Shown here piece after piece: positions 298-4,444 of a stretch of 4,444 nt of DNA. The position numbers and the translations under genes were made by a program. The stretch is from Escherichia coli (GTDB taxonomy: Bacteria > Pseudomonadota > Gammaproteobacteria > Enterobacterales > Enterobacteriaceae), in the NCBI RefSeq assembly GCF_003334385.1, contig NZ_QOWN01000085.1. One strand, 5' to 3'. Positions within the stretch are counted from its first letter, which is position 1, and the number at the start of each line of letters is the position of its first letter. The notes beneath the pieces are model-generated. The model did not search any database and was not told where the DNA came from. It saw nothing but the letters and a program-made list of their open reading frames with translations.

Positions 298-1098
298 ATG
301 ACCACTATTACCAAAGAACGTATTGAATTGTTCATTAAAAATCCGCTTGAAAACGGGCTTACTCGTGGCGAACAAATGGAACTGGCACGAATTGCACTGG
401 CATCACTGGAACGCGAACAGATTCGCCACGAGCATGCCAAATGGTCTGACTCCACATTTGGCTGCGTTGGCCCCATTGGTCCACTGAAACACCTCTCAAA
501 AGAGGCACTGGAAGCCGCAGCCGAACCAGACGATCTTAGCGAGTGGGCTGATATGCAGTTTCTGTTGTGGGATGCACAGCGCCGTGCTGGCATCAGCGAT
601 GCTGAAATTACCGCTGCTATGGAAGATAAATTGAAGATCAACATGGAGCGCCAGTGGCCTGAGCCAAAAGATGGTGAGCCTCGCTTGCACATTAAAGAAC
701 CCGGCAACTCTCCGGTAATTCCGGATGGTTTATCCACGGTATGCGCTGAGGCTTATCAGGTTGTAGGAGTTATGGCAGATGCGCTTGGTGTATTCGGTGA
801 TGCAGCAGTACAGAAAGTTCTGGATAACCTGTCACAGCAAAAACTTGTTCACAGAGATGTGCTGCCGTTCTCGCTTCCGGTAACTCCGGATGGTTGGATA
901 AGCTGTAGTGAGCGAATGCCGGATGATGGTCAGCACGTAATTATTTTATGTGATGGCGCATTCGTTCTTTATGCGCAATATCGAGACGGTGAGTTTTTTG
1001 ATGTAGTCCGTAATGGTGATGAATTTTTCGAAACACAGAGCCGCAATGTAACCGACTGGATGCCGTTACCAGAACCGCCGCAGGAGGTGCGCCAATGA
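298..1098 (+). CDS. prophage protein with a MazG-like NTP pyrophosphohydrolase-type N-terminus (DUF550-like) and a DUF551-like C-terminus
   Basis: This is a 266-aa ORF with ATG at 298 and a GGTG-type SD upstream. The N-terminal half has an all-alpha MazG-like pattern (EHAKWSD...GPIGPLKHLSKEALEAAAE...EWADMQFLLWDAQRRAGIS...KLKINMERQWPEP). The C-terminus (DGWISCSERMPDDGQHVIILCDG...VTDWMPLPEPP) matches the DUF551 signature as I remember it. The stop overlaps the next start as ATGA. Confidence 0.8.
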   Translation: MTTITKERIELFIKNPLENGLTRGEQMELARIALASLEREQIRHEHAKWSDSTFGCVGPIGPLKHLSKEALEAAAEPDDLSEWADMQFLLWDAQRRAGISDAEITAAMEDKLKINMERQWPEPKDGEPRLHIKEPGNSPVIPDGLSTVCAEAYQVVGVMADALGVFGDAAVQKVLDNLSQQKLVHRDVLPFSLPVTPDGWISCSERMPDDGQHVIILCDGAFVLYAQYRDGEFFDVVRNGDEFFETQSRNVTDWMPLPEPPQEVRQ

Positions 1099-1178
1099 TC
1101 TGGCCTGAAGCATTTGCAATTACAGGCGTTGCTATGGCTATCGCTTTTTTAGTATATGTTATTTGTCGGTGTGGGTAA
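1095..1178 (+). CDS. small hydrophobic peptide, 27 aa (MIWPEAFAITGVAMAIAFLVYVICRCG), putative single-pass membrane micro-protein
   Basis: A strong SD AGGAGG (1083-1088) lies 6 nt upstream of ATG 1095, and the start overlaps the upstream stop (ATGA at 1095-1098). The peptide has one hydrophobic helix-length segment and a C-terminal CRCG. The small size makes this uncertain. Confidence 0.45.
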   Translation: MIWPEAFAITGVAMAIAFLVYVICRCG

Positions 1179-1213: not shown

Positions 1214-1318
1214 GTGTCGGATGATATCTCACTGGCAATGGAAGGTGCGCTGGCTGTTATTGCTGTTGTGGGTGTTTACTGCCTGGTTGTGTTTTTGATG
1301 GATCGACTAGGGAACTGA
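1214..1318 (+). CDS. small hydrophobic peptide, 34 aa from a GTG start (VSDDISLAMEGALAVIAVVGVYCLVVFLMDRLGN); an overlapping alternative is a 29-aa ATG-start frame at 1212..1301
   Basis: SD AAGGAGG at 1203-1209 is followed by GTG at 1214 (4-nt spacing) or ATG at 1212 (2-nt spacing). Both frames encode a hydrophobic transmembrane-like peptide. The frame and start are ambiguous. Confidence 0.35.
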   Translation: MSDDISLAMEGALAVIAVVGVYCLVVFLMDRLGN

Positions 1319-1326
1319 ATTCATTA

Positions 1327-1348
1327 CGATATGGGAATTCCCATATCG
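1327..1348. repeat. perfect 22-bp palindrome CGATATGGGAATTCCCATATCG centred on an EcoRI site
   Basis: The sequence is identical to its reverse complement across 22/22 positions. It lies between the micro-ORFs and the predicted hok promoter, and no T-tract follows it, so it is not a typical intrinsic terminator. Confidence 0.7.
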
Positions 1349-1360
1349 GGTAAAAACGGT

Positions 1361-1388
1361 TTGCGGTAAAGCGAGAGTTAAGTAGAAT
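1361..1388 (+). promoter_or_regulatory. candidate sigma70 promoter for the hok transcript (-35 TTGCGG 1361-1366, 16-bp spacer, -10 TAGAAT 1383-1388)
   Basis: The hexamers were read by eye. They are positioned a few nt upstream of the conserved hok-mRNA 5' element that begins near 1391. Confidence 0.35.
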
Positions 1389-1390
1389 TG

Positions 1391-1442
1391 CTGCGGGTGC
1401 TTGAGGCTGTCTGCCTCGGGCATGCCACCGTAAGGCAGACAG
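1391..1442 (+). promoter_or_regulatory. hok mRNA 5' leader elements: a tac-like 5' segment (1391-1406) and a 9-bp stem (1407-1415 / 1434-1442) with an 18-nt loop
   Basis: CTGTCTGCC at 1407-1415 is perfectly complementary to GGCAGACAG at 1434-1442. Segment 1392-1406 is complementary to 1769-1784 near the 3' end, pairing 15 bp with a single bulge. This matches the architecture of plasmid R1 hok mRNA (GCTTGAGGCTTTCTGCC...GGCAGAAAG) as I recall it. Confidence 0.5.
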
Positions 1443-1449
1443 AGAAAAG

Positions 1450-1516
1450 CCCCAGTTAACATTATGCGTCTTGCAGGACGCTTAACATTAATCTGAGGCC
1501 AATTTCATGCTAGTCA
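1450..1516 (-). ncRNA. sok: putative Sok-like antisense RNA (type I antitoxin) covering the upstream start codon and SD of the hok leader
   Basis: On the minus strand there is a candidate promoter: -35 TTGCCT (plus coordinates 1550-1545), 17-bp spacer, -10 TAACCT (1527-1522), predicting a start near 1514-1516. The transcript would be antisense to the ATG at 1507 and its SD, and a hairpin GCGTC-N6-GACGC lies at 1466-1481. The ends are not determinable from sequence alone. Confidence 0.35.
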
Positions 1517-1563
1517 CATGTAGGTTAGCCTCTTACACGCCGAAAGGCAAGGAGAAGCAGGCT
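1507..1563 (+). other. Mok-like upstream reading frame: ATG 1507 with SD GAGG 1495-1498, running in frame into hok (the full frame 1507..1719 would give a 70-aa N-terminally extended Hok)
   Basis: The ATG at 1507 is 57 nt (19 codons) upstream of the hok ATG and in the same frame. The other two frames across the hok start have no usable start codon (one has a stop at 1521-1523 and no ATG/GTG/TTG downstream of it, the other a TGA at 1565-1567). Confidence 0.4.
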
Positions 1564-1719
1564 ATGAAGCAGCAAAAGGCGATGTTAGTCGCCCTGATCG
1601 TCATCTGTATTACCGTCATTGTGACGGCACTGGTAACGAGGAAAGACCTCTGCGAGGTACGAATCCGAACCGGCCAGACGGAGGTCACTGTCTTCACAGC
1701 TTACGAACCTGAGGAGTAA
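1564..1719 (+). CDS. hokD: Hok/Gef-family type I toxin, 51 aa (MKQQKAMLVALIVICITVIVTALVTRKDLCEVRIRTGQTEVTVFTAYEPEE), closest to HokD/RelF
   Basis: The peptide has the Hok-family hallmark of an N-terminal transmembrane helix followed by the conserved TRKDLCEVRIRTGQTEV...FTAYEPEE periplasmic tail. It is near-identical to E. coli HokD as I recall it, though the specific paralog assignment is from memory. The SD GGAG (1551-1554) is 9 nt upstream of the ATG. Confidence 0.9.
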   Translation: MKQQKAMLVALIVICITVIVTALVTRKDLCEVRIRTGQTEVTVFTAYEPEE

Positions 1720-1787: not shown

Positions 1788-1814
1788 AACCCGCTTCGGC
1801 GGGTTTTGTTTTTT
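1788..1814 (+). terminator. rho-independent terminator of the hok transcript
   Basis: A 7-bp stem AACCCGC/GCGGGTT with loop TTCG (1788-1805) is followed by TTGTTTTTT (1806-1814). Confidence 0.7.
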
Positions 1815-1886
1815 CCTGGCATTCTGGTTTACAATTCGCACGCCAGCCTGAACAACTGGCACCTGCTGCGCCAGCAGAGACAACCG

Positions 1887-4270: not shown

Positions 4271-4282
4271 ATCGCGTATGTT
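4254..4282 (+). promoter_or_regulatory. candidate late promoter (pR'-like): -35 TTGCAA 4254-4259, 17-bp spacer, -10 TATGTT 4277-4282
   Basis: The hexamers were read by eye at the 3' end of the Q-like gene. A transcript from here would meet the terminator at 4332-4359 after about 50-70 nt, resembling the short terminated late leader RNAs on which Q proteins act. Confidence 0.25.
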
Positions 4283-4331
4283 TCGTATAAATCTGATATT
4301 TTGCCGATTTTGTACGTGATGGCAAAGTAAG

Positions 4332-4359
4332 AAAAAACCACCGCCAGGTGGTTTTTTTT
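4332..4359 (+). terminator. intrinsic terminator (tR'-like), possibly bidirectional
   Basis: An A6 run precedes the stem CCACC/GGTGG with loop GCCA (4338-4351), followed by T8 (4352-4359). The flanking A and T runs could extend the stem and would allow termination in both orientations. Confidence 0.75.
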
Positions 4360-4444
4360 ATGTCCGAAAATCGCGTCAGTACAGTAAACGCGCTGGTGGC
4401 GGTGAATACCTGTCTTTCAGCTTGCTGGCTTTTTCGACAAGAGT
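4360..4444 (+). CDS. 5' end of an ORF beginning immediately after the terminator (MSENRVSTVNALVAVNTCLSACWLFRQE..., partial, first late-region gene?)
   Basis: The ATG at 4360 is open to the window end (28 codons). There is no obvious SD and the start abuts the terminator T-tract, so the call is weak. The hydrophobic stretch could fit a holin-type late gene, but that is speculative. Confidence 0.2.
   Translation, partial: MSENRVSTVNALVAVNTCLSACWLFRQE

Follow-up and report, generated by a model that had tools for sequence, protein, structure and literature searches.

A perfect palindrome of 22 bp lies immediately upstream of the promoter of a hok toxin gene in a stretch of Escherichia coli DNA of 4,444 nucleotides, which is referred to here as the window. 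Its location raises the question of whether the palindrome takes part in the control of hok or belongs to something else and, if the latter, what keeps it there. The original prediction, which was made from the sequence, held that such a palindrome is unlikely to occur by chance and is not a terminator, and offered three alternatives for its nature: an operator for a dimeric DNA-binding protein, an RNA processing hairpin at the 3′ end of the upstream operon, or a recombination or cruciform site.

The palindrome and the hok promoter

The palindrome, CGATATGGGAATTCCCATATCG, was checked against the window sequence and is its own reverse complement throughout, with an arm of 11. It is laid out as two 9-nt arms and a 4-nt centre, with an EcoRI site in the centre, and it ends at 22 bp with an A/G mismatch at the −12/+12 flanking positions. 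The runner-up perfect palindromes in the window have arms of only 5. An arm of 11 or more was reached in 5 of 3000 dinucleotide-preserving shuffles, and the analytic expectation for an arm of 11 is 0.001 per window, so that the claim of a perfect palindrome that is unlikely by chance was well founded. No U or T tract follows the palindrome on either strand and the terminator scan was silent at this position, which rules out an intrinsic (Rho-independent) terminator, as had been predicted. A known structured RNA family was also ruled out, given that Rfam 15 produced no match overlapping only the palindrome in the window at E values up to 1 and that Rfam produced no matches on an intact copy of the KilA-N gene described below.

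The window has a 100% match in a lambdoid prophage of E. coli STEC17-183 and carries, in this order, a DUF551 gene, two small ORFs, hok/sok, and the DUF968, RusA and DUF1133 (Q-like) genes. A complete hok/mok/sok locus, recognized by Rfam family RF01794 (hok leader/sok), adjoins the palindrome (Table 1). Because the RF01794 model aligns from its first position at 1395, we take TAGAAT as the −10 and TTGCGG as the −35 sequence of the hok promoter. The assignment rests on this 5′ end together with the conservation of the stretch among hok loci; the hok promoter itself was not flagged by a consensus promoter scan. With the 5′ end of the hok mRNA at 1395, the palindrome corresponds to positions −68 to −47. 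It starts 8 nt past the stop codon of a 34-aa ORF and stops 12 nt before the −35 sequence, which agrees with the predicted location just upstream of that element.

Table 1. Coordinates of the palindrome and of the features around it in the window.
Feature	Position	Strand	Basis or remark
Small ORF MIWPEAFAITGVAMAIAFLVYVICRCG	1095..1178	+	Abuts the hok promoter directly in 933W-type loci
Small membrane-type ORF, 34 aa, WP_001278450.1	1214..1318	+	ORF list, RefSeq annotation
Left flank: end of the small ORF and 8 nt past its stop	1302..1326	.	Homologous to palindrome-less mEp460-type hok loci to ~1321
Palindrome, KilA-N intragenic type, orphan copy	1327..1348	.	CGATATGGG-AATT-CCCATATCG
Right junction and hok −35	1349..1366	+	GGTAAAAACGGT then TTGCGG (1361-1366); 933W-type homology restarts here
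hok promoter −10, TAGAAT	1383..1388	+	6 nt upstream of the Rfam-defined mRNA 5′ end; conserved in all sampled hok loci
hok mRNA leader, Sok target region	1395..1569	+	RF01794, 117.6 bits, E = 2.8e-27, full-length model
Sok antisense RNA	1445..1515	-	Position transferred from the sokW annotation of phage 933W
mok frame, containing hok (1564-1719, type I toxin HokD)	1507..1719	+	ORF list; RefSeq annotation, identical locus
Intrinsic terminator, 3′ end of the hok mRNA	1788..1815	+	Terminator scan

Several other features of the window were recorded. The region from 298 to 1098 is one uninterrupted 266-aa ORF of the DUF551 type with an internal 20-nt direct repeat, the copies of which are 165 nt apart (711-730 and 876-895), and the RefSeq annotation of DNA identical to this region gives two partial DUF551 pseudogenes. 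A sub-threshold Rfam match to isrK (27.8 bits, with a gathering score of 50) at 1728-1809 overlaps the hok 3′ untranslated region and terminator, and a second weak isrK match is located at 4280-4358. Downstream of the Q-like gene, at 4277-4361, there is a strong bidirectional terminator-like hairpin (AAAAAACCACCGCCAGGTGGTTTTTTTT) to which Rfam gave sub-threshold matches only (Phe leader, STnc370); this is probably the short transcript of the late promoter with its terminator. An exact 13-nt direct repeat, CCCCATGCACTGA, is present in two unrelated ORFs at 41-53 and 1990-2002, with a third copy matching at 11/13 positions at 2614-2626, and may be due to chance.

The relationship between the palindrome and hok was examined in 117 hok loci, which were drawn from viral contigs by promoter/leader sequence alone and anchored on the hok mRNA 5′ end. 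The palindrome was absent from 89 of these loci, including hokW of phage 933W, all of which have the same promoter preceded by quite different DNA. Among the 28 loci in which it is present, 21 have a perfect copy (at least 22 bp), three have a 1-nt deletion in the outer left arm and four have one substitution. The spacing from the palindrome to the hok promoter/hok start is 49 versus 67 nt between palindrome-bearing types. Pairwise alignment showed that the window is a mosaic junction in which the palindrome fills the gap between two homology blocks. Homology to mEp460-type loci (aligned to L005) spans the small ORF up to about position 1321, homology to 933W-type loci restarts at 1349-1350 (G[G/A]TAAAAACGGTTTGCGG), and both types are without the palindrome. 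No candidate regulator, no second or degenerate copy and no related palindrome was found in the 50-kb prophage region. These results show that the palindrome is not part of hok regulation and that it is stranded between a small-ORF module and the hok/sok cassette.

The proposed hok operator was, therefore, not borne out, and the conservation check that had been suggested for it, a search of homologous loci for the palindrome, found the same promoter without it in more than three quarters of the sample (89/117). What stands of the idea of an operator for a dimeric protein is the site itself, which is two-fold symmetric and of a suitable kind, but neither its link to hok nor a partner within the prophage could be sustained. 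The idea of a recombination site agrees with the data as far as position is concerned, given that the palindrome sits at a recombination junction. One could still envision that a dimeric regulator centred at −57.5 represses or activates the hok promoter. A place upstream of the −35 sequence suits a class I activator, and the site is conserved in those loci where it is present. We nevertheless regard this as highly improbable in view of the many loci that have the promoter and lack the palindrome, the spacing that differs by type, the identical 22-mer in dozens of contexts unrelated to hok (see below), and the single copy that the prophage holds with no candidate regulator. The described control elements of the hok/sok type I toxin-antitoxin system, which are Sok and the mRNA fold-back elements, do not include any upstream of the promoter and, although a complete locus stands beside the palindrome here, most hok loci are palindrome-less. 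For the purpose of annotation, the hok-adjacent palindrome should not be taken for a hok operator.

The home of the element in KilA-N genes

Viral contigs were scanned for exact matches to the 16-mer core of the palindrome, TATGGGAATTCCCATA, and at least 120 loci were identified. Among the viral matches listed, 48 are linked to hok, 32 lie inside KilA-N genes and 39 are neither; in one further viral locus (L102) the palindrome is upstream of a KilA-N gene. The genes around the 32 loci encode a protein with the signature …ELSxDMGIPISELIQxxKGG…QGTWVHP…, the N-terminus of which is a KilA-N domain (Pfam PF04383, E = 1.4e-26). The palindrome of the window is identical at 22/22 positions to the 22-mer inside the KilA-N genes of E. 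coli phages and of many bacteria. A 268-aa palindrome-bearing ORF was considered as a candidate for KilA of phage P1, an identification that was dropped when the search placed the ORF in lambdoid E. coli phages, e.g., vB_EcoS-666R9. KilA-N is a very widespread viral DNA-binding domain, which is found in phages and in large eukaryotic DNA viruses and is related to the fungal APSES domain. We know of no DNA target for its bacterial and phage members.

The 39 listed loci that are linked neither to hok nor to KilA-N comprise roughly 16 with the bare 16-mer, as for chance matches, and roughly 23 with an extended palindrome. In 14 of the latter the extension is exactly CGA…TCG and the flanks are otherwise unlike. 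Because the CGA…TCG extension recurs without any other common flank, the 22-mer itself is the conserved unit. When one genome per species (298 Gb) was scanned for CGATATGGGNNNNCCCATATCG, 62 sites were found versus about 4 expected; the enrichment was judged by arm extension and by this genome collection of stated size, not by the expectation for the 16-mer in viral contigs. The hosts include Enterobacteria, many Cyanobacteria, Bacteroidota, Firmicutes, Planctomycetes, Deinococcus, Brachyspira, Opitutaceae, Alpha-, Beta- and Deltaproteobacteria, and one archaeon, and the GC content of carriers of the 22-mer ranges from 0.27 to 0.61. The centre is AATT at 37 of the sites and GATT or AATC at 12. 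Thirty of the 62 sites are inside KilA-N genes, and these genes come from 30 bacterial genomes of at least six phyla.

Codon usage was analyzed in KilA-N genes that were retrieved by degenerate protein patterns (30 distinct sequences), and the sample is, therefore, unbiased for codon choice. The codons of the motif are GAT in 28/28, ATT in 29/30, CCC in 30/30, ATA in 28/28 and TCG in 22/22 cases, and its Gly codons are GGA or GGG only. The flanking codons vary freely, and other invariant residues use two to five codons; the invariant Pro of column 83 is encoded by CCC in just 2 of 30 sequences. The 30 intragenic sites are translated as xDMGIPIS in 26 genes and as RYGNSHIA in four genes of Bacteroidota, which have the identical 22-mer at the homologous position of the domain in the other frame. 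L367 and L372, which belong to the RYGNSHIA genes, are intact ORFs of about 240 aa, and the viral gene L017 also uses the alternative frame, with a palindrome of 32 bp.

A second sample, for which N-terminal protein patterns only were used, seeded from the alternative-frame clade, contained different palindromes at the same position of the domain. These include CGTTCGGGGAATCCCCCGAACG, CGTTCGGGG-AATC-CCCCGAACG (encoding VRGIPRT), CGTTAGG…CCTAACG with three different centres, CGTTAGGCA-TATC-TGCCCAACG, CCGAAGTG…CACTTCGG, and CTATGGGA-AAA-TCCCATAG, the shorter centre of which shifts the frame between the arms. Pairs were counted on 40 distinct protein-anchored sequences. In this set, where the sequences are related, the tested structure comes from one of them and three rows were re-registered by MAFFT, paired cells amounted to 82.7% as compared with 31-44% with slid partners, and the covariation score was 0.339 versus 0.05-0.09 for the slid controls. 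Nine of the ten pairs had changes on both sides, i.e., compensatory ones. Doubly changed cells numbered 48 versus 17.4 ± 3.1 in shuffles, with 48 being reached in none of 500 shuffles.

In an AlphaFold model of the domain (pLDDT 92.9), the residues encoded by the palindrome span a turn of three residues together with the end of the helix before it (47-60) and the beginning of the helix after it. Because the model places them at a helix-turn-helix junction, it is plausible that a different peptide is accommodated at this position. The home of the element is thus the coding sequence of KilA-N, at the helix-turn-helix junction of the domain. From the sequence comparisons we are highly confident that selection acts on the palindrome as nucleic acid and not on the encoded peptide, and the intragenic element probably acts at the DNA level. 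Searches of the literature by sequence string or by KilA-N together with palindrome retrieved no description of it, and the follow-up literature on BstA (see below) contains no mention of such an element. We are highly confident in the identity of the window palindrome as a copy of this element, which is intragenic in KilA-N genes and co-varies between clades.

Two loci show unusual arrangements of these sites. The phage locus L102 (5873-6850) holds two palindrome classes in one phage: GGTCTATGGGAATTCCCATAGACC is located 194 nt upstream of the KilA-N gene, 89 nt before a TTGACA sequence and just after a terminator-like hairpin, and GGATACGGGAATTCCCGTATCC is inside the gene at the usual position in the domain. 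The presence of one class inside the gene and another upstream is suggestive of a recognition site. In Tolypothrix campylonemoides (L343, 548-600), the canonical 22-mer is the core of a perfect palindrome of 38 bp, an overlapping second site of a variant class follows directly (…GATACGGGAATTCCCGCATCGG), and another arm-matching site is 4.2 kb away.

Origin and possible upkeep of the orphan copies

Neither a bstA nor a KilA-N gene was found around the palindrome in the window or in the 50-kb prophage region, and the search for KilA-N genes remained negative at E values up to 10 both in this region and in phage PPompW. A single copy of the palindrome is present in each of the two. We refer to the hok-side palindrome as an orphan because its prophage is without a KilA-N protein and holds this one copy with no related palindromes.

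One possible source of the orphan is seen in E. coli phage vB_EcoS-666R9 (ON470614.1), in which an intact KilA-N/BstA-C gene lies antisense directly upstream of the hok locus and contains the palindrome 546 nt from the hok mRNA start. The gene and the hok locus are divergent in this phage, with approximately 350 nt between them (L392, 2109-3240), and hence a defence-type gene and a toxin-antitoxin cassette stand back to back in the nin region. In one type of hok locus (L019, L093 and L096), the flank of the palindrome is identical to the flank in the KilA-N gene at 18 of 25 nt (P about 1e-6), and by this resemblance it is clearly derived from a KilA-N gene. The left flank of the window type shows a weak match (12/25, P about 0.01) and the matching bases can be aligned as well with the end of the small ORF in hok loci that lack the palindrome, and we have, therefore, downgraded its derivation from KilA-N from clear to weak. 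The breakpoint is placed at the edge of the palindrome because the sequence to the right is unlike the KilA-N gene. A simple deletion from the 666R9 arrangement was rejected; to the right of the palindrome the two have no related sequence, so that more than one event is needed. We are moderately confident, on the strength of these alignments, that the hok-side palindrome has its origin in deletion: a KilA-N/BstA-type gene antisense upstream of hok would have been deleted down to the palindrome, leaving the orphan behind. ATCGGG direct repeats could have mediated a deletion by which the L019 type gave rise to the window type. Other remnants (L107-L109, L334 and L368) consist of the palindrome with a short flank on one side.

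The nucleotide diversity in 28 related hok loci is 0.0215 in the palindrome versus 0.113, 0.125 and 0.107 in the flanks, which is a difference of about five-fold. The hok loci show two kinds of substitution within the central 4 nt and a single change in the stem, of the G.T type, and no decayed copies of the palindrome were seen in the promoter-anchored hok sample. The window-type arrangement was present in at least 660 of 5426 complete E. coli genomes, and an intact gene of this type in 137. This pattern, in a sample that is small and consists of related loci, suggests that the orphan is retained by selection.

Most orphan sites (70/74) have no KilA-N gene within approximately 10 kb, and an all-against-all BLASTP comparison of the neighbours revealed no gene family common to orphan neighbourhoods. 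A partner gene beside the orphans was rejected as an explanation, the neighbours being primase, virion and baseplate proteins, and integrase. A dispersed repeat of the REP/BIME or MITE kind was likewise set aside, since there is one copy per prophage and the flanks of the orphans are not common. Three kinds of orphan context were noted. In L052 (6880) and L053 (14660), the orphan 22-mer is located between direct repeats of about 17 bp (GGCAACCAATGCGCGCA) beside a primase-like gene, and the repeats are reminiscent of a duplication at an insertion site. A recurring context in several enterobacterial genera (L335, L350, L352, L356, L079 and L087) consists of the hairpin GGCCTCCGGAGAGGCC, about 8 nt, the palindrome and then CTTGTATGG; the arms are intact, the centres are AATT, GATT and AATC, and the flanks have diverged. 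Finally, in low-GC phages (GC 0.24-0.30; L063/L075, 3787, and L123, 3624) the 16-mer core is the tip of perfect palindromes of 38-40 bp, which have A and T runs at their sides, are located between convergent genes and look like bidirectional terminators.

Possible roles of the element

Four of five palindrome-bearing proteins match the PADLOC model for BstA via their C-terminal domain (E = 1e-14 to 1e-21), and a BLASTP comparison with BstA of BTP1 showed 32% identity across this domain (E = 3e-16). BstA, the N-terminus of which is KilA-N(-like), is an abortive-infection protein of prophages. The prophage that is being induced escapes BstA by virtue of aba, a DNA element of 63 bp that overlaps the bstA start; the effect of aba is exerted as DNA, and each homologue has its own cognate aba (Owen et al. 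2021, PMC8585504). The palindrome is like aba in being a short DNA element within the gene of a KilA-N(-like) phage protein and in having variant classes, which in aba are matched to protein variants. Unlike aba, which is longer, overlaps the start codon, depends on terminal CCCGCC direct repeats, is no palindrome, and is not conserved between homologues, the palindrome is 22 bp in length, falls midway in the KilA-N domain and hardly differs between phyla. The possibility that the palindrome is aba itself was rejected because the published sequence, the direct-repeat form and the position all differ; bstA of BTP1 contains no comparable palindrome. We regard aba as a close precedent, in which a KilA-N-type protein goes together with a DNA element locked in its own gene.

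One interpretation of these observations is that KilA-N-domain proteins recognize the element as a DNA site with two-fold symmetry (9+4+9 bp). We commit to KilA-N because this domain is the sole regular companion of the element, is reported to bind DNA, and has in BstA a relative that is under the control of gene-internal DNA. By analogy with aba, the site could mark DNA as "self" and neutralize the KilA-N protein. An orphan would then be a DNA-only decoy against the KilA-N/BstA-type proteins of other prophages, and such a role would account for an intact palindrome amid drifting flanks. Taken as a whole, this explanation, i.e., an orphan element of KilA-N genes that came about by deletion and is a KilA-N recognition site with an aba-like role, is one that we hold with slightly more confidence than doubt. 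In its boldest form, the palindrome would be the long-sought target on DNA of KilA-N domains from bacteria and phages and would serve as a portable "self" tag, with the orphans acting as protein-free anti-defence decoys; we put this forward tentatively, as an idea of rather low probability. The accompanying proposal, that abortive-infection proteins of the KilA-N/BstA type are switched off by their cognate palindrome and that the tag is inseparable from the gene, is to our mind just as speculative. In addition, a KilA-N protein that comes in from outside might act on the hok promoter by way of the copy next to hok, which would link phage sensing to toxin expression.

Some observations fit less easily with a KilA-N recognition site. 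A near-universal 22-mer sits awkwardly with exclusive self-immunity, given that aba is homologue-specific. The orphans, most of which are without a nearby KilA-N gene or a common gene family, count against it, and a hairpin or cruciform would account for the compensatory changes, and for arms that extend past 22 bp, as well as a dimer site does. The copy beside hok might instead be a neutral relic of a deleted KilA-N gene that has no function here, its seeming conservation coming from hok lineages that are young or that exchange segments. This would be in keeping with a prophage that is without a KilA-N gene, with a palindrome at a recombination junction, with hok loci that mostly manage without it, and with a low diversity that was obtained from 28 related loci only. 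On the other side, the variability of the palindrome is one fifth of that in the flanks to its left and right, the promoter among them, its substitutions are confined to the central 4 nt or are of the G.T type, and decayed copies were not found. Its persistence in at least three left-hand contexts (window type, PPompW and L019) and the orphan being commoner in E. coli than the intact gene (at least 660 genomes versus 137) also speak against a relic, which we consider possible but doubtful.

The palindrome could also be a structure-driven DNA element, forming a hairpin or cruciform that serves recombination or replication; both the junction position and the spread to unrelated sites would follow from this. 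Breakpoints exactly at the edge of the palindrome in the window and L019 types, compensatory changes that keep the pairing and orphans without common flanks are all consistent with such an element, as is the number of contexts with arms of at least 12, 13 and 14 (31, 12 and 5, versus 16.8, 4.2 and 1.0 expected). It does not, however, explain the retention of 18 identical arm bases in organisms as far apart as Brachyspira, Nostoc and E. coli, and the 9-bp stem is weak as DNA (−8.6 kcal/mol), and we judge a purely structural role to be rather unlikely. The hairpin might, alternatively, form in RNA and stabilize or process the upstream early transcript, as was originally suggested, and modulate the mRNA within KilA-N genes. 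The sequence folds as a 9-bp stem with an AAUU loop, it follows the stop codon of the small ORF by only 8 nt, and some orphans (L063 and L123) tip long terminator-like hairpins between convergent genes. The short stem is not followed by a U tract and drew no terminator call, and there is no Rfam match at the site, be it in the window or in the intact gene. The mismatches at related sites, counted on the sense strand, are 9 G.T and 18 A.C, which is no excess of the G.U type, and a perfect palindrome reads alike on both strands, as RNA signals seldom do. An RNA processing hairpin is not favoured by these data, and we consider it improbable.

A KilA-N recognition site inside the KilA-N gene would have partial counterparts in other systems. 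The 16-bp parS site, which is bound by the helix-turn-helix of ParB in chromosome segregation, sits in parB/spo0J and in other coding sequences. It resembles the element in being a coding-sequence palindrome, found also in the gene of its own binder, whose DNA is conserved between phyla and over a broad range of GC content; in contrast to parS, the palindrome does not involve partition proteins and is present once per element. I-CreI and other homodimeric LAGLIDADG homing endonucleases have 22-bp pseudo-palindromic targets, and Iyer and colleagues reportedly compared the KilA-N/APSES fold with the LAGLIDADG DNA-binding module in 2002. The 9+4+9 architecture is shared with the I-CreI targets, but no nuclease motif was identified here and the site, which is not known to be cut, is intact in the gene itself rather than in an empty allele. 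The lambda origin, with four iterons and an AT-rich region, lies in gene O and is likewise a cis-acting site in the linker-coding part of the gene of the recognizing protein, from which the single palindrome described here differs.

The work thus provides a specific candidate DNA site for KilA-N, in the form of a 22-bp palindrome in coding sequence that is conserved across phyla, is read in two frames and covaries, and its variant classes are at hand for binding and immunity experiments. Because most of the carriers tested share the C-terminal domain of BstA, the element may be a DNA "antidote" of the gene-internal kind that aba represents, in a second form with a far more general distribution. 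If this is true, then many orphans would be DNA-only anti-defence decoys, including the one in at least 660 of 5426 complete E. coli genomes, and this class of decoy would be invisible to protein-based searches for anti-defence functions.
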